Part shown: piece after piece, positions 4,732 to 61,800 of the stretch
How the letters are laid out: every line of letters starts with the position of its first letter
Numbering within the stretch: position 1 is the first letter of the stretch
From: Eledone cirrhosa
Lineage: Eukaryota
NCBI GenBank assembly: GCA_964016885.1
Contig: OZ024743.1
Coordinates: 326,430,001 to 326,494,000 of the forward strand
DNA length: 64,000 bases
Reading direction: 5' to 3'
Notes under the pieces: model-generated
Databases searched by the model: none
The model's input: the letters and a program-made list of their open reading frames with translations, nothing else
What the model was told of the DNA's origin: nothing
Program-made: the position numbers and the translations under genes

Positions 4732-4798
4732 TTTTATCTGATGAGAACGCAAATATCATCCCATGATGATATTTGTTTTTGAAATGCGCATAATAAAA
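4732..4798 (+). ncRNA. Minimal type I hammerhead ribozyme
   Basis: TTTTAT-CTGATGA-gaacgCAAATATCATC ccat GATGATATTTGttttt-GAAA-TGCGCA-TA-ATAAAA; bracketed by an inverted repeat at 4644-4671/4811-4838. Confidence 0.85.
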
Positions 4799-12474: not shown

Positions 12475-15400
12475 TTCTTCTGCTTTTATAATTTCACAAA
12501 GTTTTACCAATAGAGAGAGAGTCGGTTTCTAACATAGTTACAAGACTCCCTCATTGGAATTTACACATCAACTAGGTAGATATGTATGTATGCATGCATG
12601 TGTAGATATGGATATTATTGTATGTGTGGATGTGTATGTTTTGAGTTGTATGTGTGCATGTGTATATGCTTTGTATCTGTACAAGTGTATATTCAGTTAT
12701 TAGATGCAGAATTATTTGAATGTTTTACATATTTTTACTGTTCCATTAATGGATTGTACTTGTAATTTCCTAACTAGTTGTGTTCTTTCTGTTCCTGTGA
12801 AGCCTAGCTTCTCAAGATTTGTATTGAGGCAGTTACTAACATACCCCAGTACCCCAATAACCACAAGCATAAATCTGAAGGTGTAATCAGGGTGGAGTAT
12901 CTGCAGATTTCTCATCAGTTCTGCATAAATATTCTCCTTTTCACTAATCTTTGATTTAATTTTGGCATCTGCTGGGCAGCTAATTTCCACTACTGTGCAT
13001 GCTTTCTTCTCCCTGTCCCATATCATAATATCTGGTCTGTTATGCCTGCATTTTATTGGGGTTTTTACTGGAACATTCCACCAGTACTCTTTCATATTAT
13101 GTACATGTTTTCCACATTGCTGTAGCTTTTAATGTGTTTATTATCGTGTTTTGGCCACTACATCATGCCTCATAGGTAGATAGTACCGCGATGACATCTT
13201 TGGACAGCTGCTGATGACATGGGTGATATCCTCGATGTTAGTTCTGCAGAGTCTGCACTTGTTATCACATCTAGGTGTTTTGCCTGCATCCCTATCTCTT
13301 TTGTGAATCAGGTATTTCGTGTCTTGGATTGCAAAAGCGTATTCTTCAAAGTGGGAGCCAATATAACGGTTGTTGGTCCAAGATAGACTACTTTCCTTAT
13401 CTATATTATTCTGGAGCTTCCTGGCAACATATCCATGTATGATTTTTTGCTGATAAGCATGCAGTTTTTCATCCATGGATTCACTGCGATACTGCTGAGC
13501 GACATCCCTGGGTGTGAGTTTTTGATTATCACACAGGGAATATCTCTCAAGGAGTTCCTTCCCAACTCTCATGATCTTATCTGTTTCATGCAGACAGACT
13601 TGCTCAAGAAACGGGCTCCTACGCTTCGAGGTTCGTAGATGTTGTCGGAGAGATATGATGCGACATTCAAATGTTGTCTGGACTGATGTTAGGCCTCTGC
13701 CTCCCTGCTTACGTTTCAAGTAAAGGCAGTATATGTCACTGTTGATGTGGAAGTTTCCGGTGTTGTTTAGTATTTTTCGAGTTCCAACATCAACTGCTCG
13801 GATTTCGTCTATCGTCCAATTGAGTATTCCAAACGTTGGTGTTAGGACAGGCACAGCAAACACATTGTGAGCCACTGTTTTGTTTTGTACAGAGAGTTCC
13901 GATGACCAGATCTTTCTTAATCGGGTGTAGTATTCCCTGGTTACGCGTTCTTTATTACAGATACCATTATAGGATATGTTCTCATCTATCCCCAGGTATC
14001 TGTAGCAGTCCTCATCAGATATCGGTGAAACAGTTAGGCCATTGATGACAATGTTGCTAGATTGGGTTGTTGTTTTTCCCCGCTTTACAGTCATGTATGA
14101 CCATTTATCTTGACCAAACTCCATTCCTATATCCTTTGAGAATGTTGTAACCAGGTCAAGATTTTTCTTCATCCCATCCATGTTCTTGGCATAGAGTTTC
14201 AGATCGTCCACAAAGAAATTATGAGTTAGGTTCGTATTTCTGTCCTTCTGTGAACCAATGATATATCCCTCACATTTCTTGAGCAGAAAGGACAAGGGGT
14301 TTAATGACAAGATGAATAATATCGCAGAGAGACTGTCTCCTTGAAATATACCCCTGCAATATTTTATTTTCCCAGTGAAAATAGGGTCCTCCTTCTCTGT
14401 CTTTAACCTTAGGATAGTAGCCCAAGAAGAAGACAGCCTCTCTATGGTTCTGACAATAATATCTCGGACTTTAGCAAGTTGGGGGGCCTCTATCATCCAA
14501 GAGTGGGGAACAAAATCGAAAGCTTTCCTGTAGTCCAGCCAGACTGTAGCCATATTCCTCCTAAGTTGTCGCACCTCCGACATCGCAGTTTTGTTGATTA
14601 GGAGTTGTTCAGCACATCCCCAAACCCTTTTCTTTCCAGCTGCTTGTTCATCTGTGATGATGTTATTATTTTCACAGTGATCTTGGAGGAATAGGTTCAG
14701 GCAGGCTGTGTACATCTTATACATCAGGTTCTGGCATGCAATGGGTCGGTAGTTTTTTGCCAAGTGGGTGTCTTTGTTCTTGGGGACCAGTAATGTTTGT
14801 GCTAATGTCAACCATTCTGGTATAAGTGTATCTCCCTTAAGAACTTGTTGGTAGAAGTCAGTAAGATACCTCCGATAGAATATCAGTGTTTTTTGTACCA
14901 GTAGCCGACAATCATGTCTCTTCCTGGTGTTTTCTTATCTTGGAGTTTTCCTATCACAGTCTAAAGGGTACCCTCACTTATTTCGTATGTTTTTGTTGTA
15001 GTGTAGGAGCAATAGTTCTTTCGGATTTCTCTTAGCCACACTGCATCTTATTTGAAATTCTTCTTTTCACCCCATATTTTGCTCCAAAAGGAATCTATGT
15101 CTTTCTGGGATGGGGCCTCAGTGACACGTATTATTTTGTTCTTCATATCTCTATAGACTGATGTTTAGTTTCGTCTGAATCTTTTTTATTAAGCACTTTT
15201 CTCTCATCTACCTTCTTCAGGTATCGGCGTTTTTCGCTAACAGCTCTCAATTCTTGTTTGAGGGTGATCAGCTTATATTGGAGAGTTCGGGTTCTACTTT
15301 TACCAAACATCGTCTCTATTTTATTTTTCCCTCTTTGTTGGTGAGGAGTGAGGTTTTTTTGTGTTTGTTTGCATGTAAGGAGCATTGTCACATATCCTAT

Positions 15401-31305: not shown

Positions 31306-34300
31306 TCTATATATATAAAACAGAAGATGTCTGTCTGTTTGTCTGTGTAACCGCATGCATTTCTATATTTTACAACCGATTTGCACCAAATTTCATACAT
31401 AGGTTTCTGAAGTCCTATTACGCGTCGTAGGCTATTTTATTTTTCCGTACATCGATTGTGGGGTCCCCCTTAATCCTCTCGCTTGGAGTCAGCAGTACTA
31501 CTGCATAAAGGCCCCATAATTCCTGCAGTTTGCCTCCCATCTTCACCAAAATGAATCTTTTGTTTGCTTATGGTCTACAAATAAATTTTCAGGCATGCAC
31601 TTGCGCAGAAATTCAGGTAGGGGGACCCCTTGGGGGAAGGAAACCGACTTGATGAATGTTGAAGTTGATATCATCAATGCAACAAAACGTCATAACTGCT
31701 TGAGTTGGTGTTTGGTTTTCACGAAGCGAGACGTATTGGTTACCCATGGCTTATAAAGGAAGGTGAACACATGAACTTTTAGTTGAACTTATCAAGGGGA
31801 CCTTTGACTTATCTATTGAAGCAAGCCCCTTCGACTTATCTATTGAAGTTCGCATTAACACTGTATTAGTACTTGATAACTTTTGAAGCAAGTGGGCAGT
31901 AAGCCCCGGCGAGTGAAACTACATCGACAAATTCATTTCTGCCGAACTACCTGATCCGTCGATTGACAAGGACCTCTTTTCTATAATCACATCAAACATG
32001 GTCCATGTTACTTGCGGACATGGACTCAATATGAAATCCCCGTGCATACACGACGGAAAGTGTACAAAACGATATCCCAGGTTATTTTTGCAGGAAACAC
32101 AGACTGGCGAGGACGGATATCCTTTGTATAGGCGCAGGAGACCTGAAGACGGTGGGTTCACAGCAAAAGTTGGCGAACGCGAAATCGACAACAGCTGGAT
32201 AGTGCCATATTTCCCTCCCTCCTCTTGAAAGCGTTCAACGCCCATATAAACGTCGAATTTTGCAACTCAGTAAAATCAATTAAATACGTTTGTAAGTACG
32301 TAAACAAGGGATCGGATGCTGCCGTCTTTGGTCTTCGCTATGAAAACAGTAGAGACGAAGTATCTGACTACCAAGCAGGCCGATACATTAGCAGCAATGA
32401 AGCCTTTTGGCTTCCCACTGCACCAACGACACCCCGTCATTAAACAACTTGCCGTTAACCTTGAAAACGGTCAACGGGTGTTTTTCAACGATGCAACGAT
32501 GCAACGATGCAACAGCTGCTCAGCTAGCGAGCTCACCAAAAGAAACTACACTCACCGCGTTTTTCAAACTTTGTCAACACGACGACTTCGCTCGAACTTT
32601 GCTGTATTCTGAAATACCGTCTTACTATACATGGTACCGGACAAAATGGCTACGACGGAAGGTAGGGCAAGAAGTGGTTGGACATCCAGGCATCAAATTC
32701 GACAATTGCCTTGGGCGAGTTTATACGGTCCACCCTACCCAACACGAATGCTTCTACCTGCGACTTCTGCTTAATGTGGTAAGAGGGCCGACCAGCTTCA
32801 CTCATCTGAGAACCGTCGATGGATACGCCTGCAGAACGTACAGGGAAGCCTGCTCGAGGCGTGGACTTTTAGAAGATGACGCACAATGCGATGCAACCTT
32901 GACAGAAGCTGCCATCTCACAATCATCCCATAGTCTAAGGGCTCTTTTTTCTATCCTCTTGCACGTCTGTGAATTGAGCGATCCTTACTCTTTATGGCAA
33001 AAGTTTAAAGATGATTTCGCAGACGAATATAGGCGTCTCGCTCAATTGCAATCTCAAAACTTAGATGTCGGCTTTTCAGACGCTATATATAACAGAGCTC
33101 TGATCGATATTGAAGACAGAGTGGCTTCAATCGGCGGAGATGTCTTGGAGAAATATGGGCTTCCGCAAACACTTCGAGATGCGCCATCTGACATTCCCAA
33201 CGACATTATACGTGAAACGCCATATGATGTCGACCAACTCAAAAGGTATGTTGAAGAAAATGAACCAAAACTTCTAATGGATCAAACACCAGCCTATAAC
33301 ATTGTCGTTGATTCCATCCGCAATCGGGGAGGGGGTATATTTTTCATGGACACACCTGGAGGCACGGGCAAAACATTTGTAATCAAACTTTTACTCGCTG
33401 CAGTGAGGCAACACGGAAACATCGCATTGGCCGTGGCTTCTTCCGGCATTACAGCAACTTTTCTGCCTGCTGGCAGGACGGCCCATTCTGCCTTTAGTCT
33501 TCCTCTCAACGTGGCATCATCTGAGACACCCATGTGCAAAATCAGCAAGCCTTCCGGAAAAGCACTGGTGTTAAAGCGCTGCCTACTAATTGTTTGGGAC
33601 GAATGCACAATGGCCCACAAGGCGGCTTTCAAGGCATTAGACCGGTCACTCAGAGACATCAGGGACTGTCAAGAACCAATGGGAGGTGTCACTTTCCTGT
33701 TATCTGGAGACTTCCGACAAACTCTGCCTGTAATCCCAAAAGGTACGCGGGCTGATGAGGTTGGTGCATGCCTTAAGGCCTCCCCACTTTGGCATTATGT
33801 AAGAAAGCTGACGCTTACAACAAACATGAGAGCACAACTACAAGGTGATGAGACATCAGCGGGTTTTTCTGCTGCCATTTTGTTGTTGGGAGATGACAAA
33901 GTCCCACTCCACGGAGATGGTGCAGCGGACCTCACAGGGATTTGCAGATGCGTTAAGTCAATTGCTGAGTTACGGAGTCTGTTTTTCCTAATCTTGAGGA
34001 GAACTACACAAATCAAGAGTGGTTGTGTGTACGCGCAATATTGGCTTCGAAAAACCACATAGTTGGAAACATCAATGAACAGCTCATGCTGTGCTTGCCT
34101 GGAAACCTGCATGTCTACAAGTCCCTTGACTCTATGGCTGATCCGGACGAAGTCGTTAATTACCCCCACAGAATTTTTTAACTCCCTAGACTCACCCGGA
34201 TTGCCACCACACTTACTGCGACTTATGAAAGGTGCCCCTGTTATGCTCCTCAAGAATTTGGAACCCCGAAGGCTTTCCACCGGCACGCATCTGGTCGTCC

Positions 34301-35313
34301 AAAAGGCTATGCCTCATGTTATTGAGGCAACAATACTTACAGGATGTGGTAAGGGGGATACTGTCTTCATACCAAGGATACCTCTCATTCCATCCGGTAA
34401 AGACATTCCTTTCACATTCAGAAGGCTGCAATTCCCTCTCCGGCTCAGTTTCGCCATGTCGATTAACAAATCACAGAGTCAGACGCTGACGGTCGTAGGG
34501 CTCAATTTAGAAGAACCGTGCTTCTCCCATGGTCAACTATATGTTGGCTGCTCCCGAGTGGGGAGCCGGCATAACCTATTTGCTTTTGCAACTCGCGAGA
34601 AAACCCAAAATATAGTCTATAAGGAAGTTTTTTAGGCACCCCATCCGCCAACAAGTAATCGCTGTTTTTTATTTTGTATAAGTGCTTACATTTGCTGTAT
34701 CCGTGTGCTATTTTTGTCCTTTTGACAATACAACGTACGCATCTGAGGTTGCTTTTGCTATACGTTATAAATGTACAATTTCTCCGTTTTTCGCATTTAT
34801 ATGTTGCTATTACGCTTTGCTAGCGATGTTCACTAGTTTTAACCTAATTAATCTACTTTTCCCTACATCTTATTTACACATTTCTTTTGACATTCCAGCG
34901 TGATCTTGCCAAGGCCGTTTTTATGGCCATCGACTGTGACATGCTTTCTAGGTTACAATCTCAAATAACAAGCAAAGCAAATACGACACACCAAAGTGGT
35001 GTGAAGGACTTCTTAAGGGCCACCACCTCTAATCGGAATCGTCTTTGCTGACAGCTCTGCCGCTGGGACTTTTAAGAGTGAACGATCCAAGGCCCTCTTC
35101 AGGGCCACCAAATTTAAATTGTTACCATCAGATTCATCTTTGCTCGCAACACCGCCGCTGAGTTATTGCAAAGTGAACATTAAAAGTTCCTCTTCAGGGC
35201 CACCAACTATAAATAGTTACTTCTATAGTCTTGTTTAACGGAAGTCTTTCGGTTCATTTGAACGACTACTCCATTGAGAGTTATTCCGGGCAACGCCGGG
35301 TACCCCTGCTTCG
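31306..35313 (+). mobile_element. Helitron, internally deleted
   Basis: 5' TCTATATATATAAAA; 3' ccgggcaacgccggg hairpin and a degenerate CTRR-like end; Rep-helicase remnants inside. Confidence 0.9.
31920..34635 (+). pseudogene. Helitron Rep-PIF1 helicase, frameshifted, N-terminal Rep motifs missing
   Basis: DGYPLYRRR, HINVEFC..KYVCKYVNKG, PGGTGKTF, IVWDECTM, GDFRQTLPV, QFPLRLSFAMSINKSQ, HGQLYVGCSRV. Confidence 0.93.
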
Positions 35314-40395: not shown

Positions 40396-41700
40396 TCAAG
40401 GATCAATTTCCCCCTCGTCCTGCTGCATATGAAAGTCTGCTGTCCAGGTTGGTGGTTTGCGACTTCTTTGCGATCTCCGCAGTGTTGGGGCGGCACTTTG
40501 GGTTTCCTCTTCCTCGGAGTCCGTTGACACAGTAGTTCTACGGACATCCAGGCCATGACGTGGTACTCCGTCCGTGGACACATTGTTCTGGGAATTTACG
40601 GCCGTCACCGTTCCCCTTCCCCATTGAGATGTGCAACGTGCCTCTGGGGGCTTAACCCAGACTTCTTCGCCCACCTGCACGAATGCATTCTCTCTCTCCA
40701 CTGGCCGTTGTGGTGGCGTACACGGGTGCCGCCACTCGTATCTGAATACTGCTCTGTGTGGGACCGATTTCTCAACCTGTCCCGCCCGAGGGGACATGTT
40801 GTACCAGAACACTGCCTCCATTGGAGAGATGTGGCCCCGCTCTGCCATTGCTTTGATCGTCCTGTGGTGTCGCTCCACGATTCCATTTCCGCTCGGCCTG
40901 TACGCTGCTCTGAAGAAACGGTCCACCTTCCATCCATCGAGCATCTCCCTCAGCGCCTCCGAGCCGAACGCTGCGCTGTTGTCCATCAGCAGTTCGTCCA
41001 TAGGGCCCCGCTCCAAGAACACCTCTCTCAACGTCCGCGTGATTTCCTCGGCCGTTCCAGTCTTCATCTCCTTCCATATCGCCATCCGTCCCGGTCCACA
41101 GTCGACCATTGAGATGTATGTTCCTTGTCGGTAGTGTGTTACATCCACCGCCAATCGCTTCCAGTCGCGATCCACCGGGAGGCTTCCCGTTTCGTGCACA
41201 CCCGGGGCCGGATCAATGGCCTGACATCGGACGCAGCCTCTAACCACTCTTTGAACACTGTGTCTGTTAACATCCGAGTCGATTCTCCTGGCTAGGAACA
41301 GAGTCCTATCCACTCCCATGTGGTGCATGTCATACAACCCTTTCAGATCCGACTCGGTCAGCCGACACACGGCAGCTATCTCCTCTTCTACATCCTCCGG
41401 CTCTTCCATCCAGGCTTTCTTCACCCTGGTTAAAACGTCCGCCCTATTTTTCTCTGAGGGCACGAAAACTACGCTCAGCCTCAGGTCGAACTCGGTGGCC
41501 AGCTCTCCTAAAGTTCCCAGACGGCGTTTTATCAGCATCTCCGCCGCCCCTCTCGTTCGCACTCTCTTCTCACTGGTGAGCACTGATGTCACCCATCAGA
41601 GTACAGTAACCGAGTCGGTGCGAATCTCGATGGTGCGCAGTCCCCAACTCAGGGCGAGGTTCACCCCTCTCAATACCGCGTCCAGTTCGGCCACACTTTG
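40396..41700 (-). pseudogene. Gypsy RNase H C-terminal part and integrase
   Basis: AELDAVLRG..IRTDS, NRADVLTR, HMG..CVRC, LAVDV, MDNS, GNGIVERHHRT. Confidence 0.9.
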
Positions 41701-41817
41701 TTCTTTGTGGGTTGCGCCACCGCCATTAACGGCAATACTCCACACTTCACCTTCTCTTTCCAGGGAATCAGTATGCCCTCCTCAATCCATCTCTCTACCT
41801 CTCGCTCGAACTCGCTC

Positions 41818-42330
41818 CTAATGTCTCCCTTCAATGTGTTGATAGCAGCCCACTTTGGTCTTCAGTGTTGGTGGTTCTCCCTTCCAGTACCACTCAACAA
41901 CCCATCGTTGCCCATCGAACACGACCTTGAAGTTTTTGTCCTGTACAGTGTAAACGGGATATTTCTCCTTGCGGGCCTTCTGGTTCTCCTGTCGCGTACT
42001 CACAGCGTATACCGATGCGGTGCCGCCAAACGACACACCGACATTGTTCACTGTGACGCCTCCTAGACGACCAATTGCGTCCATGCCCATAACTAAGCTG
42101 ATCCCATCCACCACCTTGTCGACTACAATGGCAGAAAGCCTTATTTTCTTTCCCCGTACCGCCATCTCCACCTCGTTGCGACCTCGGCATTCAATTTTCC
42201 TACCGTCGACTGCCCTTACGCTGCTCTTCCCTCTCCACCTCTGCGCCACCCCCGCGGTCACCAGTGTCGTCGTACAGCCCGTATCCATGAGGGCTCGCTG
42301 TGGCTTTCTCCTCACGAAAACTTTCACCAC
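41818..42330 (-). pseudogene. Gypsy aspartic protease region
   Basis: ALMDTGCTTTL and LVMGMD motifs. Confidence 0.85.
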
Positions 42331-42422
42331 GGACAGCGCCTCTACTCGTAAGGGGCAGCTATCGGCGCAGTAGTTCCCCTTGGATCGTTTCCCTGGTCGC
42401 AGCTAGTAGCGATGTGGCCTGG

Positions 42423-43106
42423 TCACTTACACCGGTAACATATTTTGTCCGGCCTTGAGTCTCTACAGTCTCTCGCCATGTGCGGGCCCTGGCGCCTAAA
42501 ACAGCGACCTCTAAACGTTCGCGGGCGACCGCGTGCCGTAGTTGCCTCCCTTTCACCATTTCGCTGCCGGCTACCTTGGGCCTCTATCATTGCTATCGCC
42601 GCGACACTCTTCTTGGCATCTTCTGCTATGATGCGGGCTTGCTCCACCAGTGCACGCATCTCCATTTCCTTGTAACCCGGGACTTGCTGCAGTTTCACCG
42701 CTATGTCGTCTGGAAATCCATTTATGAACGCCAACCGCACCGTGCGTTCGCATTCCACCTGATATCCAGCCAACATGGCCAATCGCCGTATTTCCGCTGC
42801 GAAAATGTCAACGCGTTCACCGTTCCATCTAATCCTTGCCAGCTTAGCAAAAGCGGCTAACAGTCCTTCCGCGAACGCTTCCGTCATACGCCTCTCAATC
42901 TTTTGCGCATCCCTTTGGCTATGTTCATCCATCTCTAGGAAGAGTGCCAACGTACCCACCTCGAGGTACAGTGCCATGAGGCCAGCCACATCTTCTATCT
43001 TCTGTAAGCTTGCGACCAGCCGGACTTTTCGCAGCCAAGCGACAACATCGCCTTCACCGGTAAATGCTCTAATCACTTCTCCGCTCATTCGTAATCTCGT
43101 CGCCAT
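42423..43106 (-). pseudogene. gag: Gypsy Gag with zinc knuckles (premature stop)
   Basis: FTGEGDVVAWL, FINGFP, CFRRQGPHMARDC, CYRC. Confidence 0.85.
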
Positions 43107-44175
43107 ATCCTAATTTTGTCCTGCGGTAAGTAATAAAAAACAACAGACTCCTCTCTGTTTTTCCAGTAGCTTTGTTTTCGAGAAAGTTCTTTTTTCTTTT
43201 TTTTTTTTTGATCAATCAGATCTCAGTTTCCAGTGCCGAAATAGCTTGTGGTTAGAAAAAGCTACTTCACTTACCGCTTTCGCTGGCACCGCTAATCCCA
43301 TGGCTGGTTTCTCCTCTCCCACGTGCGTACAATCCAACTCGTTAACCGGAGCTCCAAAACTGACGTCCACCACGTTCGCTGACCACCCTAGAGAGAGGCA
43401 GACCTGCTGGCCCTGCCGGTTGAGCACCCTTCCGGTTAAGCACTCTTCCGGTCGAGCACTCCCCAGCCTCCGGCTACCGCACACCACACCATACCCACAC
43501 CGTTGATCAAACAACTGGAATACAAATTTTGCGGAGGAAAGCGGCTGTGAGAAGACCGAAGACACCAGAGATCACGACGGCGAACGACACGAAAAGAAAG
43601 CAATATGTCAAGTCATTGTATTTGAATATTAAAATTAATCTTGGTTGCATTAATTTATAAGTACCATGAAATTTTGAAAAAAAATTAAAATTTCAATTAT
43701 TTTACCCGTGTAACATTGCCTGGTGTTACCCACACCTGCAAAAGTATACACTCCAAAAGTATACGTGTAACACTCAAGCATATAAAATCAAGAAAACTAC
43801 TCTAGGGCCGAAACTGCCAGAAGTTCATTTCGAGGGCTGAAGACCTTGGAGTTCTGTGTCTTTCGTTTGTATTTTTAATTTTAAAAAGTTTTTTTACGGT
43901 TTCCCCTTCAAAGAAATCTTATAAAAACAACCACACATAAACAAACAATAAACACACACTAATGTCCAAAGATAGAATGCAAACAGACAGAGACTCAGAC
44001 ACGAACACACAAACACACACAAAACAGAAAACATGCACACAAACGCATACGAAAACAGACACAGTAATAAATAAACAAATAAATAAATGACAGAATAATT
44101 AAACATTACGACACAACGGGAGGAAACATAATAGTATCACTGATGATGTCACATGTGTGTGATGAAAGAACTTTG

Positions 44176-44268
<93 letters not shown>

Positions 44269-44557
44269 AAATAACGAAACGAAATTAAATTTCGTTTCGT
44301 TTGTAACTCACTTTTGTATGACTGACGCTTAAACAATTAAGTCAAAAATGTACATCTACATATGCATACTGAAATACTAGTGTGTATATGAATACATACA
44401 CGTATACGTATGTAGGTGTACCAAGTCTTTCACTGGTCGCTTTACAGTGAGCGGCCCAGCTATTCTGTATGTAAACACACAGACAAACCGGTTTTTAGAG
44501 TCATACTGGTTTTTCGGGGGAACACCTTCCCCCTATTCTCCAGAAAGCCAGACAAGG

Positions 44558-44602
44558 AATATTGAACTAGTTTCGTTGTTGTTACAACTCATCAGCAATA
44601 TT
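44558..44602 (-). ncRNA. Intact minimal type I hammerhead ribozyme
   Basis: AATATTG-CTGATGA-GTTGT aaca ACAAC-GAAA-CTAG-TT-CAATATT. Confidence 0.93.
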
Positions 44603-45260
44603 TACCTATCTACCGGCCTTTCTGGAGAATTGTAAAAGCACATATCGTTATATGCTTTTTCTATGAAAATTAGTAGTGGGCAGACTAATTTGCATAGAGT
44701 GTGAGTACGCACCGGTTCAGCGGAGACGATAAAAACAAATAACGAAACGAAATTAAATTTCGTTTCGTTTGTAACTCACTTTTGTATGACTGACGCTTAA
44801 ACAATTAAGTCAAAAATGTACATCTACATATGCATACTGAAATACTAGTGTGTATATGAATACACACACGTATACGTATGTAGGTGTACCAAGTCTTTCA
44901 CTGGTCGCTTTACAGTGAGCGGCCCAGCTATTCTGTATGTAAACACACAGACAAACCGGTTTTTAGAGTCATACTGGTTTTTCGGGGGAACACCTTCCCC
45001 CTATTCTCCAGAAAGCCAGACAAGGATATGCATATGTAGATGTACATTTTTGACTTAATTGTTTAAGCGTCAGTCATACAAAAGTGAGTTACAAACGAAA
45101 CGAAATTTAATTTCGTTTCGTTATTTGTTTTTATCGTCTCCGCTGAACCGGTGCGTACTCACACTCTATGCAAATTAGTCTGCCCACTACTAATTTTCAT
45201 AGAAAAAGCATATAACGATATGTGCTTTTACAATTCTCCAGAAAGGCCGGTAGATAGGTA

Positions 45261-45305
45261 AATATTGCTGATGAGTTGTAACAACAACGAAACTAGTTCA
45301 ATATT
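45261..45305 (+). ncRNA. Intact minimal type I hammerhead ribozyme (predicted cut after 45298)
   Basis: Same sequence as 44558-44602; stem I extends through attctccagaaag / ctttctggagaat. Confidence 0.93.
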
Positions 45306-45528
45306 CCTTGTCTGGCTTTCTGGAGAATAGGGGGAAGGTGTTCCCCCGAAAAACCAGTATGACTCTAAAAACCGGTTTGTCTGTGTGTTTACATACAGAA
45401 TAGCTGGGCCGCTCACTGTAAAGCGACCAGTGAAAGACTTGGTACACCTACATACGTATACGTGTGTGTATTCATATACACACTAGTATTTCAGTATGCA
45501 TATGTAGATGTACATTTTTGACTTAATT

Positions 45529-45581
<53 letters not shown>

Positions 45582-45886
45582 CCCAAACCAAACAGTGACT
45601 GTTTTATTATGTATTTCTGGCAATATTATAACAATTTGACTCTGTTGCTTAAACTTTAATCTGTTATTTTAATAAATATATATGTTGTATATATTTAAGT
45701 GACATTGGTGATTAAAGTGATAAAGTTGAAAAGGCAATGAAATATTGGTGTATTTTATAAATGAAGAATATTTCTTATGACAGGAGAGGTTGATTAAGTG
45801 ATGGCGCCTTATTGTGGTGGATACACGACTAAAAGATTGTTGAGAGCAAAAGAAAGCGATGAGGGGATTGGGGAATATATATACTG

Positions 45887-46002
<116 letters not shown>

Positions 46003-46207
46003 AAAGAAAGTGTGGTAAGGATCCAGGTGGACCATAATGCACCAGAGTACTCGATACTTAGGGTAGTAGAGTGGGAAATAGAAGAAGAGTCAGGACCCCG
46101 ATGGCTGAGTTCCGACAGTTTCGACAGCTAGATCCGAACTGTTCGGATCTAGCTGTCGAAACGGCCGATGCTCAGCCGTCGGGGTCCTGACTCTATATAT
46201 AGGTCCT

Positions 46208-46567
<360 letters not shown>

Positions 46568-52151: not shown

Positions 52152-55100
52152 ATGTCGAACCTAAACAGTTCGAATAACGGTGAAATGGAGACTAGAATGT
52201 CATGTGACAGACTCTCACCCAACAGGTGCCCTCTGGCTCAGCAGCAGGGACCTGGCTGTCAACCAAATACTGCTGGTGTCGGAGGAAGAAGAAGAAGGAA
52301 AGGGACCAGAACCAACTGGACGAAAGAATTGAATAGAACTGTTATGCAATGTTACCTGAAGAGTAACCCCAAGGAGAAAGGCTATAGGAAACGGATGCAT
52401 AACATCTGGAACGAGATTGATCTATTTAAATTAGATGAACAAAAATTGGCCGGGCAGGCTCGGGTAATAAGAACTAATGGGTGGATAAGCGAGCTGGAAC
52501 TGGAGGAACTGAGCAGAGAGATTAGCTTGAAGATAGAGAGTGGAGTATGCCAGGAAAACGAGCCAGTGGGAAATGAAGGTGAAGAGGTCGAGAGAACGGA
52601 GGAACCACCCGAAACAGACAATGATCTGAATGCTGAGATAAATAATACCTGGAACAGGGATACGGCCACTGAGGAGAGGAATGCTGACGGGCTAGGACAA
52701 GATTTGGTTGATATCCTAAACTTAGTGGTAGATGAATTGAACAATGATAGTGGGAAACCTATGAACCTAAGATTTGTCGACAGGAAAAAGTTAAAAGAAA
52801 CAACAGCTAAGGTAAACAAAGTCATCCCATACCTTGAGGCGAGGAGCCTTCACCAGTGCAACAATATCCTCAAAGCAACAGCAAATACGGTGAGGAATCT
52901 ATTTGGTATAAAAGCGAGCGGAAACAACAGACAAGAAAGATCAGAGCCTTGGTGGAAGAAACGACTGAGTGGTCAAATCAAGGAAATGAGAAATGACACT
53001 GGAAAGCTTGAGTCCCTACTGAATGGGACACTAAAAAACATAGACACTAAAAATAGACTGGAAATAAAGTACAAAACTAGGAGGAAAAAGCTAAATATTA
53101 TCATAGAGGAACTGAAGCAACGCATTCAGTTCCTCTATGATAATATTTTTGCAAGAGTGCAAAAATCAGGCGATACGAGAACAGAGTCAGTCAGTATAGA
53201 CAGAACCGCATGTTCGACAACAACCAGAAGATGCTGTTTGGACAGCTTGAAGGGAAAGAAAGAGGCAACGACTTGATCCCTGAGGCGGAACAAACTAAAA
53301 CATTCTGGAGAGGAATATGGGAGCAGGATGTTAAACATAATGACCAGGCAGTGTGGATTGAGACAGTACAGAAGGAGATTAGTGAACAGGCACACCAACA
53401 AACTGATTTGAGTATCACAGTTGAAACTCTTAAGGGGCAGGCCAAAAAACTAACCAACTGGAAATCACCAGGCCCAGATGGTGTGCAGGGGTATTGGATT
53501 AAAAATATAACATTCCTCCACCCGAAACTGACAACCATGTTCAATGACTGCTTGATGTCAGGTGAGGTACCAGAGTGGTTGACAAAAGGTACCACAGTTC
53601 TGATAATGAAAGACCGAATCAAGGGTAATGATGTTACCAACTATAGACCTATCACATGTCTGTCCGTAATGTGGAAACTGTAGACAAGAATTATGTCTGA
53701 GGAAATCTACCACACAAACAACTTGTTACCGGACGAACAGAAAGGATGCCGAAAGAAGTCACGTGGTACAAAGGAGCAGTTACTTATTGATAAGATAGTA
53801 ATGAGGAATTGCAAGAGGAGACACACTGGTCTTGCCATGGGATGGATAGACTACAAAAAGGCATTTGGCATGGTGCCTCATTCTTGGATCACCAAAAACC
53901 TGGAGATCTTCAAGGTGGCAGATAACATTAGACAGTTGTTGGGCAAAAGTATGAAGTCCTGGGAAACAGAGTTAACATCAACTGGAGAATCCTTGGGAAG
54001 CGTGAAGATCAAGAGAGGTATCTTCCAGGGAGATAGTCTGTCCCCTCTGTTGTTTGTCCTTGCCCTGATGCCCCTGACCAGTGTACTGCGAAAAGTGAGA
54101 GCAGGATACAGGTTGGGAAAGGGTGGGCTTACCATCAATCACCTCCTCTTCATGGACGATCTTAAGCTCTTCGGGAAGAGTGAGAAGGAGTTGGATGTGC
54201 TTGTTGACACTGTCCGTATTTTCAGCAATGATATATGTATGCAATTTGGTATTAGTAAGTGTGGAGTCATTGTGATGAAGAGGGGTAAGTTGAGCAGAAG
54301 TAACGGAATCCAGGTACCAACAGGTGAGATGATAAAGGAAATTGACTCTGAAGAAGGATACAAGTATTTGGGTGTTCTGGAGGCTGATGACATCAAGAAC
54401 AAAAAAATGAAGGAATTGATAAGAACTGAATACATTCGGAGAGTAAGGAGCGTATTAAAGTCACATCTGAACAGTAGGAATGCCATAAGTGCAGTAAATT
54501 CCGAGCTGTGTCTATTATTAGGTACAGTGCGGGAATTCTGAGATGGAATGTTGCTGAACAAAAAGAAATGGATAGGAAGACTAGGAAGCTATTGACTATC
54601 TACAGCATATTCCACAAGAAGAGTGATGTCGATAGACTCTACTTAAGGAGATCTGAAGGTGGAAGAGGTCTTATCAGCATAGAGAACTGTGTTCAGATGG
54701 AGAAAAACAACCTACACAAATACGTGACTGATAGCAATAGGCCAGGGGATGTCCAAGGAGGAAATAACGACAAGGAGAAAGAGCAGCCTTCAGGAAAAAT
54801 CCCTTCATAGTACCTTCTTTGAGAAAACTGAATTTAGAGATCCACAGACATGGAACTGGTTGAAAAGAGGAGACCTTAAAAAGGCTACAGAAGGAATGTT
54901 AATGGCTGCGCAGGAGCAGGCCCTCAAAACGAAGTGGTTGAAACACCATATTTACAAGGAGGAGGCTAGCCCACTGTGCAGGACCTGTGGAGAGAGAGAG
55001 GAGACTGTAGCTCACATTGTATCCGAGTGTAAACACCTAGCCCAGACTCACTATAAGGGCTGGAGACATGATGTGATGGGCAGGGTGATCCACTGGCACC

Positions 55101-55623
55101 TATGCAAAGTAAACAATTTACCACATTCTGAGAAGTGGTATGAGCATAAGCCAGAGTCGGTGATAGAAAACTATCAGGTGAAGGTGCTGTGGGATTTTAG
55201 GATACAGACGGACAAGAAACTGGAACACAATAGACCTGACCTGGTGGTTTTGGACAAGGAAAAAAGATCGTGCCTGATTGTGGATGTGGCCTGCCCATTC
55301 GACACGAGAGTGCAAGAGAAGGAGAGGGAGAAAGTTAACCGATACCAGGACTTAAAGTGGGAGGTAAAAAGGATTTGGAACTGCCATGAAGTCAAAGTGA
55401 TCCCGATTGTCATAGGTGCACTAGGGACTATCTCAAAAAGTTTCCAGGGATGGTTAAAGAAAATTGGCCCCTTCACGCTTTTTGGAACGCTTCAAAAGGC
55501 ATGCTTGCTGGGAACAGCAAGAACCCTCCGATACGTCCTGAATATCTGAGGCTGCAGGTAGTGGCTTGATATTCATTTCAACAAACTTTCCAGTTAACTA
55601 ACATCAATGACTGAGACTCAAAG
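52152..55623 (+). mobile_element. R4/Dong-group RLE retrotransposon, near full length, frameshifted, flanked by (TAA)n
   Basis: WTKELN..GYRKRMHNIW N-terminus, [62 protein letters not shown]; TAA arrays at 52128-52151 and 55624-55650. Confidence 0.93.
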
Positions 55624-55650
55624 AATAATAATAATAATAATAATAATAAT

Positions 55651-58600
55651 GAAAATAATGAGATCGTAAATGATAAAGAAATGAATGAGAATGAACTTGC
55701 CAACTTGAAGGATGAAATTATGATCGAATGGATGAAAATGAAAGAATCTGACATGGGGCAACGAGACACCCTCCCTAAGATCCAGAACTCCAAACAGAAC
55801 CAAAAGATAATACACAAGACTAACATAATTCTCAAAAACATTATCATCACAAACAAACTAAACATTACTGATTTAAATCATCTCTATTATGCATCGGCTA
55901 AAGTCATCACTCACTTATGTGGAGTGAAGATGAAAAAACAAAGGAATTCCCACAAGAAATCTACTTGGCAAGAGAACATCAATCGCCAAATAAACCTTCT
56001 CCGATCTGACATAGAAATTTTAACAAACTATAAAGTAGGTGAACATGTTAAACAAACTAAACTTAGAAAATTGAAAAGAAAGTATAGTATAAAATCAACA
56101 AGTGACATAGACATGCTGATAGAAATAATCAAGCAAAAAGTGTCGAGGCGCTTTGAAAAACGATCTAGATTCTATAAGGACAATAATATGTTCAAAAACA
56201 ACCAAAGAAACTTCTACAGAAAAATTGGTAAGTCAACAATAACTGCTAAATCAATACCACCCAAGGAGGAAGTGCAAGAATTATGGGAAAAGATCTGGGC
56301 CGAAGAAAAAGTTCATAACATACATGCCCCATGGATAGACAGACAAATGAAAGATACAGCTCACCCTGAGGAACAAATATGGGAAAACATAACAGTTGAA
56401 CAGTTGCGCTTGGCTCTAAGAAAAACCAGCAAATGGAAATCCCCAGGAAAAGACAAAATACAAAATTTTTGGATAAATGCCTTCACAGAGTCTCATGAGC
56501 TGTTAGCCCAACTTTACAATGAAATAGTTAAGGAGCCAGAAAAGATACCATCATGGCTAGTTAACGGCATTACATTCCTGCTTCCGAAGAATGATGAGAC
56601 AAACAATCCCAAAAATTACAGACCGATAACTTGCTTGACCACAATGTATAAAATTTTAGCATCAGTCCTAACTGAATACACATATGACCACCTGATAACA
56701 AATGACCTATTTCCCATTGAGCAGAAAGGGTGTAAACGAGGCTCATATGGCTGTAAGGATCAGCTTTTGGTTAACAAAATGATACTGGAAGATTGTCATA
56801 GACACAAAAATCTATCAATTGCTTGGATAGATTATAAAAAAGCATTCGATAGTTTGCCACACAGTTGGATTGAAAAATGTTTAGAGATTTTCAAAATATC
56901 CCCCGTTGTCAGGAGGTTTTTGTCATCCAGTATGAAGACATGGAAAACGACACTTCTTTTGAATAGTGAAACAAAATCACTGGAAGCTGGAGAAGTTAAT
57001 ATTAATTGTGGAATTTTTCAGGGTGACTCTTTATCACCGCTTTTATTCTGCATCGCACTTATACCATTAAGTAAAATGCTCAATGAAACAAAACATGGAT
57101 ATAGAGTCTATGACAAAACCATTAATCACTTGTTCTACATGGATGACCTGAAACTATTTGCAAAAAGTGATGAACAATTGCAAGGGCTATTATCCACTGT
57201 GGAGCAGTTCAGTGATGACATTAAAATGGAGTTTGGACTAGATAAATGCGCCAAAGCAACGTTCACCAGAAGAAAGCTGCTGAAGAGTTCAGACATTAAT
57301 CTTGATCGGGAGAACGTGATAAGAGAACTTGATCAAGAAAAAACTTACAAATATCTAGGTGTTTGTGAAGGAGACGGAATCAAGCACTCGACAATGAGGG
57401 AAAGGATAAGGAAGGAATGTTACCGCAGAGTAAGAGCAATCTTAAGAACGGAATTGAATGCAAGGAATAGGATCGATGCCATAAACACGCTTGCCATACC
57501 AGTAGTAACCTACAGTTACAATGTCATCAACTGGTCAAGCACAGAGATCCGTAGGCTCGATACAAAAATTCGAAAATTCTTAACCATGCACAGAATGCAT
57601 CACCCTAAGGCAGATATAGATAGAATATATCTCCCTAGGAAAGAAGGAGGACGTGGGTTAGTCCAGTTAGACATTGCGTTGAAAACTGCAACAATTGGAT
57701 TATCTACATATCTAAGGGAATCACATGATTGGATGATCAAACTCGTTTTGAAACACGAAAGCATCAAAAGATCATATTCCATTACAAAAGATGCACAAAG
57801 ATACAGTAATGGACTACAAATTTCAGAAGTCCCATTTACTGCTGAAATGGAAAACACAGAAAATGCAAAGCAGGTAAAAGTAACTGCAAAGAAAGAATTG
57901 CTACAGAAACTGGCTAAGAAATGGCAAGAAAAGCCTCTGTATGGAAAATACCCAGAACGAGCTAACAATCCTGATGTTGACAAAACTTTAACCCATCAGT
58001 GGTTGGCATCCTCTGGACTGAAATCGGAGACTGAAGGACTGATTATATCAGCACAAGATCAGTGTCTGCCAACAAAAAATTACCAAGCCAACATAATAAA
58101 AAATGGATGCAGCCCATTATGCCGTGTATGCAAAAAACAACCAGAGACCATTGACCATATAATTTCAATGTGCAGTCCTATAGCTCCAACCGAATACCTA
58201 AACAGGCATGACAGAGCTGCACAATACATACATTGGATAATGTGTAAGCATTTTGACCTGCCCCATCAAAAGAATTGGTGGGAGCATCAACCACCTCCCA
58301 TACTTGAAAAAGATCACATCTCAATCTTGTGGAACTTTAGCATCCAAACAGACCGAAAAATAGATGCAAATAGACCTGATATAATATTGAAGGACTTTAA
58401 AAAGAGGGTATGCCTGTTAATTGATATGTCCGTTCCAATAGACAAGAATGTATCTATAAAAACATTTGAAAAATTGAGCAAGTATAAGGACCTGGAGATA
58501 GAAATTGGAAAAATGTGGAAATTGAGAACTAAAACAATACCAGTGGTTGTAGGCGCTCTAGGAATGATACCTAAGGGGTCTAATGATTACTTATCGCAAA

Positions 58601-58829
58601 TCCCAGGAAACCCGCGTATAGGAGAAATACAAAAGATAGTACTAATGGGAACTGCCCATATACTAAGGAAGATTCTGTTAATATAAGTACATCACAAGTC
58701 TAAACACTAAAGATGCATGTGTGAGTGTGTATGTTCTTTCTTGAACATGGCGGACCTTGTTGTCTCTTGAGGTCATTGGTTGTGACTTGGTGATAACTCG
58801 TATGAACATAAAGCAAGATAAATGCAACT

Positions 58830-58884: not shown

Positions 58885-61800
58885 TTTCTTTATTGACTAC
58901 AAGGGCTGACATCAAGAAAAACATTACAGACGGCACAGGACGGTACAGGACGGTACGATGTGGGTTTTGTGCGTGTAAATATTTTTATTATTTATATAAG
59001 AAAAGAAAAAAAAAGGACATAGAAACATATATAAACATATATAAACAATAAAAATGAAAATTGAAACAATGAAAAATTCCCCAATAGGGGGAATCCTCCG
59101 AGGGTTACTCGTGGCGAAAACCACACAAAAGACCACGGCCACCCTGACCACCAGGGCAAGCGCCCTCTCTCAATTTTTCCATTTCTCAAACTACAGACAT
59201 ATATTCACTCGGACCATTGTCGCTACATTCACCCACCTTTCAACAAACTTGCTAGAAGGCAGCACTTGCCTCTCCACCCTCATTTTCCTCTTCAAGTGAA
59301 ACTTGAAAAAGTTAATTAGGGATTCGCCGAAGAGGAAAGTGTCTGTCTTTAACCCTTTTAACCTTGTCCACCACACAATCTCTTTCGCTATGGCCACCAG
59401 GCAGATGAAAACCGCCTGCCCTTCCTCCTCGAAGGAAGACGGCGAGACCATCTGCACAATGGACTCAGTCGACAACCGGATCAGTCCTACACGCGACAGC
59501 AACTGTTCGACATAGCTCCACAAGTCAGCAATGCTCGGGCACTGAACGAGTGCGTGCACGACGGTTTCGTCGCTCTGCGCGCATCTCGGACAGGCTCGGC
59601 TGACGGCACTTCCGTGCCTGTAGAGCTTATCTCGAACCGGCAGCGCTCCCCGGAAGCACTGCCAGGGATTTTTGGAATATCCATAGGCCCTGGGCTGAAA
59701 GTTCTCAGGAAGAGAGCAAACAGCTGATCTTCTTCGACGCCCAGGATCTCTCCGAGAATGTCGTCGCTCTTCCCCTCCACTAGTCCTCTATAGAACGCCG
59801 AGGTGGATGTTCCACCGATACTGGTGCCCAACTGGCAGAGGGCAGTGAGCGCCTGGAGACATTCCAGTTTCCAAGCGCTATCCCTCGGTCTTTTTCTGAC
59901 CCAGGACTGCAGCTCCGTCAAGGAGACGAGCTGTGGGAAAACGTGCCTGGCGAATGGCGACCACACCTGTTCACCATCAAGGAAGCACCAGAGATGTCGC
60001 AGTCTCAGCGCATGTTTGCGCATCATCAGCCATGGCATGCCCAGTCCTCCACGCAACGGGTGTTGATAGCAGATGGATCGTCTGACCATGGGAGCGCGTC
60101 CCTTCCACAAAAAGCGGAAGAGGAGGTGCTCCATTTTGGTGAGAGTTCGGCTGGAGCAAGGCACGACGGTGAGGCGGTAGCAGATGACGGATGCGATGTA
60201 CGCATTCGCCACCTCCGCCCGGCCTTTTAGGGACAGCTTCCTCTCGGCCCATTTCTGGGTGAGGGAGGCCACCCTGCTCGTCACCTCGTTCCAGTTTTTC
60301 TCCATCTGGAGGTCCGGTCCTAACCAGACCCCGAGCAATTTAACCGGTCGGTCCGTCCAACGCCCCCACGATGCTGTCGGACGGCATGGATTTGCCTCTC
60401 CAGGTGCCGAGCTGCAAGCCCACCGACTTTTCCTGGTTTATCTTTGCTCCTGTCACCGCTTCGTATTCCTTGAGAGCGGTGCCGAGCATCTGGACGTGTC
60501 TGGTGCTCGACACCACCACGGTGATGTCGTCAGCGTAAGCCGACTCGGATTTCCCGCATTCTAGTTCGCGTGGGACGCCCCTCATCGCCCCCAGTTTGTG
60601 CAGTAACGCTCGAGAACCAATACGTACAAGAGGGACGAGAAGGGACACCCCTGGCGGACTGAGCGCATGATGCTGAACGGCTGCGACAGGTGACCGTTCA
60701 CCCTCACAACTGAGCAGATGTCGCTGTACATTGCTGCGATCCTACCCCTGAAAACGGGCCCGAAACCGGCTGCCTCGAGGACCGCCGCCAGGTACCGATG
60801 CTTGACCCTATCGAATGCTTTGGATTGATCCAAGTTGATCAGGGCCCCACCCGTGCCAGGTTCCTTAACCACCCTCTCTATGATGTATCGCATGAGGTGG
60901 AGGTTGTCGTGTATGGATCTGTCCGGAATGGCGCATGTCTGCGCCTCTCCCACCAGACCCTTGACGACAAGCGCCAACCCCGTTGCTAACACCTTGGCCA
61001 AAATCTTGAACTCTGTGTTTAGCAGGCTTATGGGCCTGAAATTATCGATAACATCCCCCTTGTTCGGGTCTTTTCTCAGCAGCGCCACTGCTCACCGGCT
61101 CACAAAACTGGTAATGCTCCCGTTCTGTTGCCAGTTGCAGTAAACATCTGCTCGGTGGAACAAGTCTGGCATAAATGCATAAAGCTCGTAGGGCAGACCA
61201 TCCAAACCTGGCGATTTACCCCTCGTGCAGTTAGCCATCGCTTCCCGTATTTCACCGGCTGTTATTGGCTTTTCGCAACACTGTGCTGCGGTCGTCGAGA
61301 GCCGAGGCAGTCCGTCGAGGTATGCACTGAAGTCCATTCCCCGATCCGGGCCACCACCGCTCCCGACAGTTCAGCAAAGTGCTGCTGAAAAGCTTCACAC
61401 ATCCGCTCGGTTTCGAGCATCACGTACCCGTTTGGGTCAGACAAAGCCCGAATTGTGGCTTTGTTGCCACGTCGCGCCTCTGCCACCCGGGCCCATTGGA
61501 CGGCTTTTGTCCCCTCGTGTTTCAGAGCACGCGCTCTAGCTCTGACAACGCAGCCTTCGTGCTTTGCGTTGAAGAATTTGTCGAGTGCCAATCTCGCCGC
61601 AAGTACGTCGGTTGCGATGCCTGTCCTAAACGCCTCTTTTAGCTTTCTGACTAGCTCTCCCTCTACTCTATTTTCCTCTATCACTACTCTGCTCCTTTGC
61701 TAAACCTAATCGACTCTACTTTAATTTCCCTTTTCAGGGCGAACCACCACCTGTTGTTGACGACCGCTCCCGTCAACGCCCGCTTAACTAATACGCTAAT

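Follow-up and report, generated by a model that had tools for sequence, protein, structure and literature searches.

Metazoan non-LTR retrozymes, as the available text of PMC7229834 and 10.64898/2026.07.22.740005 describes them, are non-coding, low-GC tandem units of a few hundred nucleotides, each with one type I hammerhead that has a weak stem III, strongly self-paired and present in thousands of copies alongside Penelope-like elements. PMC7229834 proposes circles as the templates of these elements and Penelope elements as their drivers, while Li, Clavereau and Pollet (2026; 10.64898/2026.07.22.740005) argue for descent from pLTRs, call the mechanism unresolved, and report that one of nine Xenopus dimers self-cut. 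Endonuclease-bearing Penelope-like elements, recognized as Neptune-like by a CX2-5CxxC linker, are marked in the sections available to us by a head-to-head inverted, 5'-truncated copy with a 30–40-bp tail at one end (PMC3846280, PMC8557442), by AT-rich or (TA)n targets, and by a type I hammerhead. The tail is the stretch between two internal reverse transcription start sites, and a Penelope-like protein extended both target strands from two such sites in vitro (PMC11167929). How animal retrozymes enter DNA, and how one-tailed inverted Penelope insertions arise, are stated as open in the accessible parts of PMC7229834, PMC8557442 and 10.64898/2026.07.22.740005.

The element described here has the traits of both groups and departs from each. 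Metazoan retrozymes are described as tandem arrays in the text of PMC7229834 at hand, in which the word "inverted" occurs 0 times, whereas our element is two-armed and head-to-head, with two fixed, paired ends in (TA)n. Its 468-nt unit exceeds the 150–450 nt of PMC7229834 and lies within the 51–972 nt of 10.64898/2026.07.22.740005. RNA circles have been shown for published metazoan retrozymes, and for the present element they are a prediction. Unlike Penelope-like elements as described, the unit has no ORF, the tail is about 70 nt long rather than 30–40, and both arms can be multimers of one short unit. We found no two-armed, paired-end footprint for retrozymes in the literature searched, which was mainly outside subscription journals; figure S9 of PMC7229834 may bear on the model.

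The insertion in the window and its hammerhead

The window is the whole 64-kb stretch of Eledone cirrhosa DNA analyzed here. A preliminary description had read from it a 468-nt unit in a tandem minus-strand arm joined to an inverted plus-strand arm, and our analysis bears this out, with a repeat period of 468 nt (G+C 179/468; unit numbering starts at window position 45027). The features are given below in window coordinates.

43927..44181, plus strand: decayed 3' end of another repeat, outside the insertion, with a minimal hammerhead-like motif near 44139-44170
44182..44265, no strand: left (TA)n target tract
44261/44265-45026, minus strand: left arm, 766 nt, 1.64 units, from unit 279 round to 108
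44261..44329, minus strand: tail of about 69 nt (unit 40-108), with a hairpin at 44273-44301 inside
44542..44613, minus strand: type I hammerhead of the left arm, predicted cut between 44565 and 44564, after GUU
45026..45027, no strand: head-to-head arm junction, unit 279 against unit 1
45027..45533, plus strand: right arm, 507 nt, 1.08 units, from unit 1 round to 39
45157..45214, plus strand: block conserved with a sister family (unit 131-188, 78% identity)
45250..45321, plus strand: type I hammerhead of the right arm, predicted cut between 45298 and 45299
45532..45581, no strand: right (TA)n target tract

Near-identity of the copies between their (TA)n tracts was also confirmed, as two single-base differences separate the arms, one internal (unit 440) and one in the (TA)n junction. 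Both carry A26G and T429C, the former found in a few other loci too. On its outer (3') side the left arm stops at the long "A" site (unit ~104-108), and its inner 5' end is at unit 279; the right arm stops on its outer (3') side at unit 39, the short "B" site. The tail is present at the left outer end and missing from the right. The two registers thus differ, as had been noticed, but are not arbitrary: for its outer end each arm uses a different one of two fixed sites, and variation is confined to the central 5' ends. Within the block conserved with the sister family, ATGCAAAT occupies unit 142-149. The 468-nt circle holds no ORF, the longest stop-free stretch being 84 codons and the longest from an ATG 20, in agreement with the first reading.

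Hammerhead cores start at 45268 (plus) and 44595 (minus), with none in the partial units. One type I hammerhead per full unit with a palindromic stem III had been proposed and is upheld, but the term minimal fits only stem III, which has 2 bp (ACUAGU); stem I is extended (7 + 3 bp with a bulge) and stem II has 5 bp. The cleavage triplet is GUU in the window's subfamily and GUC in others, and the predicted cut sites were placed by the standard hammerhead scheme. An Rfam search at the gathering score gave no match in the window locus; in E-value mode Hammerhead_HH9 matched at 38.6 bits (E 7.7e-8), under the gathering score of 52. In an alignment of 11 variants hand-picked from the subfamilies, including two sister-family rows, the core was kept, 97.3% of cells were paired (33–55% in slid controls), and 6 of 17 pairs had changed on both sides. 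These patterns support a predicted self-cutting motif whose fold appears to be conserved by compensatory changes. The strong self-pairing suggested earlier was likewise recovered, the linear unit folding at -162.3 kcal/mol (z -9.83; 0 of 100 shuffles as good) and the circle, in prediction, at -158.4 kcal/mol with 66% of bases paired.

Newt satellite 2 and the hammerhead satellites of schistosomes and cave crickets are also tandem hammerhead repeats with a palindromic stem III, suited to dimer cleavage, and our unit resembles them in both respects. Newt satellite 2 has an snRNA-type internal promoter. In the present unit, unlike newt satellite 2, such a promoter was not supported: scored with a profile of nine host U1/U2 promoters, of which 8/9 score high when left out, the unit fell below shuffles (p 0.77–0.79). 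The host U1 and U2 promoters themselves, upstream of L301-L324, carry TCAGT near -57, an AATTA-like motif near -92 and a TATA-like motif near -30, and no octamer was found within 300 nt upstream. All three satellites are mentioned in the accessible text of PMC7229834.

Several other repeats lie in the window. The neighbor at 43927..44181 ends in the left (TA)n and may be linked to Penelope. Two small repeats ending in (TA)n, one of them palindromic (46000-46210 and 45645-45697), occur beside many fetched loci and are probably further (TA)n-targeting non-autonomous elements. Positions 40396-43600 hold remains of an LTR retrotransposon that match protease and integrase, 32401-34635 frames for a PIF1 helicase, likely from a Helitron, and 13141-14934, 52152-58686 and 59191-59787 LINE-type reverse transcriptase frames, one of them 1,023 codons long. 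Minimal hammerhead-like motifs also lie at 4738 and 38459, the latter resembling one in the Penelope locus L164.

A dispersed family with paired ends in (TA)n

A screen of the 3.0-Gb genome yielded 5,212 exact occurrences of the 30-nt ribozyme core and 2,343 exact A-end/(TA)n junctions, with 0 for each reversed-pattern control. The unit is also present in contigs of public sequencing runs from three studies, and together these observations speak against an assembly artefact. None of the public runs listed as holding the unit is on record as RNA; the four runs examined were seen as contigs only, their kind unrecorded, and carry no information on expression or ends. In run X1, which may be the source sample, (TA)n follows the base equivalent to 45134 (unit 108), and run X6 (kind unrecorded) gave three contigs of one haplotype closing round the unit, which we left out of the evidence. 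Among 145 loci covering at least 440 unit positions we distinguished six groups of at least 14 members. The window's group comprises 39 loci with a mean pairwise divergence of 0.56%, and is over-represented because the first search was ranked by similarity to the window. Copies range from monomers to multimers, with arms of up to ~30 units (L201+L102). The unit thus represents a young tandem family that is non-coding, dispersed through the genome and conserved in its type I hammerhead; its low-GC short tandem unit, intact hammerhead, dispersal without a reverse transcriptase ORF and self-pairing are those expected of a non-LTR retrozyme, as far as sequence can tell. A sister family with ~70% identity and its own hammerhead occurs in the same genome (L171:7541-9501, L172, L095, L023, L041, L104 and L271-L298). 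Its period is ~470–510, with internal (TA)n and a GUA triplet, and it has a head-to-head layout with one end homologous to site B.

To describe the insertions we fetched 190 stretches by unit similarity, by core position on contig 1 or by either end pattern, which gave 178 insertions. Left out were 11 duplicate stretches, L203 (no match) and L208 (nested), and three long arrays were each merged from two stretches; arm lengths are inflated because part of the sample was chosen for holding a full unit. Arms are oriented with their ribozyme-sense 3' ends outward, and these outer ends lie at unit ~104-108 (A) or ~34-39 (B), ~70 nt apart. Among the 113 two-armed insertions with both outer ends inside the stretch, 101 were A+B, two were B+B (L220 and L222), none was A+A, and 10 had one end elsewhere, so that A+B accounts for 101/103 of those with both ends at canonical sites. 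The same held for 35/35 canonical pairs in an end-blind subset and for three further long arrays, and many seemingly single arms do have a partner arm, only a few bases long and of the type expected. (TA)n lay on both flanks in 95/101 A+B insertions, and direct flank duplications were found in 22/101, compared with 8/101 mismatched controls (p 0.009). This pairing of one long and one short outer end is the Penelope "tail at one end" signature. The marks of a non-autonomous element mobilized by Penelope are thus present in the inverted head-to-head arms with a one-end tail and in the (TA)n target with its duplications.

In LINE-1 twin priming, too, a single RNA is primed by both target strands and yields two segments whose 3' ends face outward, but the second priming site varies and the segments do not overlap. 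In the retrozyme both sites are fixed, and the arms overlap and exceed one unit. Two kinds of unusual insertion were seen in passing: L198:870-934 has a 65-nt GC-rich foreign piece between the arms, possibly a captured cellular RNA fragment, and the flanks of L025 and of L231 are inverted repeats of each other, through insertion into the center of a palindromic element or inverted target duplication.

The footprint also bears on whether the family is a satellite, spread and inverted at the DNA level by unequal exchange, extrachromosomal DNA circles or conversion, with the hammerhead as a passenger. Irregularly shared variants in long arms do show some later turnover, and growth of some long arms in this way is plausible. 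As the origin of the insertions, DNA-level spread is largely refuted, and we consider it highly improbable: over 2,300 sites have a fixed outer end in (TA)n, the arms keep to one orientation and to A+B pairing, flanks are duplicated, some arms are joined to the 3' parts of Penelope elements, and the mutation spectrum of fixed variants is changed.

Proposed template and priming of the two arms

We think it likely that the window locus is a high-copy non-LTR retrozyme inserted in (TA)n as two head-to-head arms by a Penelope-like enzyme, copied off both target strands from one probably circular RNA. An array would be transcribed, its hammerheads would cut the transcript into 468-nt monomers, and a host ligase would close these. 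A Penelope RT-GIY-YIG dimer would then nick both (TA)n strands with a stagger, each target 3'-OH would prime at one of the two sites ~70 nt apart, each reverse transcriptase would run round the template for a variable distance, and the two cDNAs would be joined in the middle of the insertion.

The inner ends speak to the form of the template. The predicted cut site is crossed by 77/97 A arms and 78/97 B arms, and 113/194 arms exceed one unit; a cut linear monomer is therefore not the usual template. Cut linear monomers as the main template were rejected, since inner ends within 5 nt of the cut showed no excess in the fuller count (10/296 versus 7.0 expected, p 0.16; a first count gave 9/194 versus 4.6). 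Inner ends are instead scattered over the unit and have two hotspots, at about 63-71 and 285-291. Locus-specific variants, defined as not in the nearest loci and present in every covering unit, were found in 51/154 loci and in both arms in 37/109. The clearest one-haplotype loci are L043, L056/57, L186, L054 and L182: L043 has ~20 units over both arms with no internal difference and three private clustered A>G changes, and L056/57 has 23 units with two variable sites. Variants fixed in all units of both arms point to a bottleneck of one unit, which was then amplified into both arms; rolling reverse transcription of a circle is the simplest way to achieve this. The homogeneity within loci could alternatively come from a young homogeneous parent array, conversion or assembly polishing. 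Minor alleles common to several units occur in 23/32 loci of at least four units, irregularly in L102, L140 and L190, so multimer templates or later array turnover also occur. The preliminary description had left the template as circular or multimeric RNA; the variants fixed across both arms narrow this towards a one-unit bottleneck, though the minor alleles shared in long loci keep it short of proof. On this evidence we lean towards a monomer circle as the usual form.

An uncut or partly cut linear multimer transcript, used by the same element with the same Penelope-type two-strand priming, would be the main competitor, and we rate it as unlikely. Uncut RNA was the main substrate in the in vitro work as reported in the available text of PMC11167929, the 2-bp stem III and GUU triplet may cut slowly, two unit types alternate strictly at five sites in L052, and L229 has two haplotypes in tandem. 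Strict alternation fits a dimer circle as well, however; the absence of inner-end enrichment at the cut and the compensatory changes that keep the ribozyme fold speak against a linear multimer, and a one-unit bottleneck is needed where a locus-specific variant is fixed in both arms, in one locus over 23 units.

Alternatively, one cDNA could fold back on itself and the endonuclease could trim the inverted copy to give the tail difference, a combination of the self-priming idea in PMC3846280 and the resolution idea in PMC8557442, as far as their accessible text goes. Several junctions fall in a palindrome at unit 68-96 with 25–40-nt overlaps, unit 63-71 is an inner-end hotspot at a hairpin, as fold-back would give, and variants common to both arms would follow naturally. 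In six loci, however, each arm holds unit sequence missing from the other, and the second arm there is therefore not a fold-back copy. Either arm may be longer (A in 54/97) with uncorrelated lengths, and some insertions have a second arm from a different element. We regard fold-back as improbable, and independent priming of both arms as a conclusion that merits good confidence.

The fixed variants also hint at A-to-I editing of the RNA. A>G exceeded T>C by 21:9 among locus-fixed variants in 116 loci (p 0.027), by 35:17 as distinct variants in 139 loci (p 0.012) and by 21:14 among locus-fixed variants in 170 loci (p 0.24), compared with 64:60 among singletons, and A>G made up 21/69 fixed variants versus 64/617 singletons (p 2e-5). 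A>G recurred, across three or four subfamilies, at unit 74, 151 and 277, positions that are paired in the predicted fold. The preference for a 5' neighbor of A>G was not significant (U 9/21, p 0.36), T>C was also enriched in fixed variants, and G>A exceeded C>T (19:10). With a strand bias significant in two of three analyses, no context bias and T>C enriched, the editing marks are no more than suggestive.

It is conceivable, although we would not put this at even chances, that a single 468-nt RNA circle, in some cases carrying A-to-I edits, is gripped asymmetrically by a Penelope RT-endonuclease dimer, with one subunit per start site and both subunits running round the circle from opposite target strands. 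The near-strict pairing of one long and one short end in the retrozyme differs from the in vitro reaction, in which the available text of PMC11167929 records no strand difference. Several observations sit less easily with a circle primed from both strands at paired sites: L139 pairs an A end with a Penelope long end, L220 and L222 are B+B, inner ends cluster at the unit 63-71 hairpin, and the anole protein in vitro used uncut RNA with the start site alike on both strands (PMC11167929, in the sections at hand).

The probable link to Penelope-like elements

That Penelope machinery is abundant, as first proposed, is true of the genome, which has 10,595 GIY-YIG candidates, but not of the window itself, where no Penelope coding sequence or ORF was found in the 64 kb and the reverse transcriptase frames are LINE- and LTR-type by Pfam. 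The fetched RT+GIY-YIG elements have the same inverted ends in (TA)n, with a one-end tail of 36–62 nt and the CX4CxxC linker described for Neptune. Twenty odd-ended insertions were examined for what their arms continue into. In L116 an A-ended retrozyme arm is joined without a (TA)n gap to 2,433 nt of an RT+GIY-YIG element, stopping at that element's short end, and in L139 the A end is joined to 240 nt of the long end of L116's Penelope family. Other arms continue into the endonuclease end of another Penelope family (L033), the 3' end of a further repeat (L070) and the sister retrozyme (L236). These joins fit template switching within one integration event. The chimeras draw on at least two coding families and so identify no one partner; they point to the L167/L173 family, though not solely. 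Partner searches that started from the GIY-YIG family, from protein L161 or from a relaxed hammerhead pattern gave no terminal repeat similar to the unit's ends in 50 GIY-YIG loci of the 10,595 candidates, and no similar coding element in 30 other hammerhead loci (L241-L270 were outside the alignment to the unit). L161:4309-7122 and L241-L270 form a young coding Penelope-like family with 98% identity, in which the frame of L161 is open over 937 aa; most other copies align to it only from residue ~168 onward and have a stop at that point, suggesting a conserved frameshift or intron.

The unit contains no RT plus GIY-YIG ORF that would make it an autonomous Penelope-like element. It might instead belong to a coding Penelope element as its terminal repeat, or be an artefact of assembly. 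Xenopus retrozymes do resemble pLTRs, according to the available text of 10.64898/2026.07.22.740005, and an ancestral link is possible. Penelope coding sequence was present in 9/190 fetched stretches, however, with direct joins only in L116 and L033 and to different families, and thousands of dispersed copies, with support in the public-run contigs, contradict an artefact. For the present-day sampled copies this reading is refuted, and we give it the lowest probability of all. The dispersed non-coding hammerhead family and the Penelope-type insertion marks support the original proposal of a retrozyme moved by Penelope-like machinery, which we hold to be very probable.

The retrozyme class and its link to Penelope have already been published as proposals, and this family provides unusually direct genomic evidence on the mechanism. 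A short unit with thousands of young insertions separates the insertion models: the footprint favors a one-unit template and independent priming of both strands, with the two start sites used as a pair, and speaks against simple fold-back. It also identifies an RNA, a target and candidate enzymes with which the reaction could be reconstituted. If the asymmetric grip of an RNA circle by a Penelope dimer is true, the inverted copy and the one-sided tail that all Penelope elements show would follow from a single step, and the insertions would preserve, in the genome, individual circular RNA molecules together with their editing.
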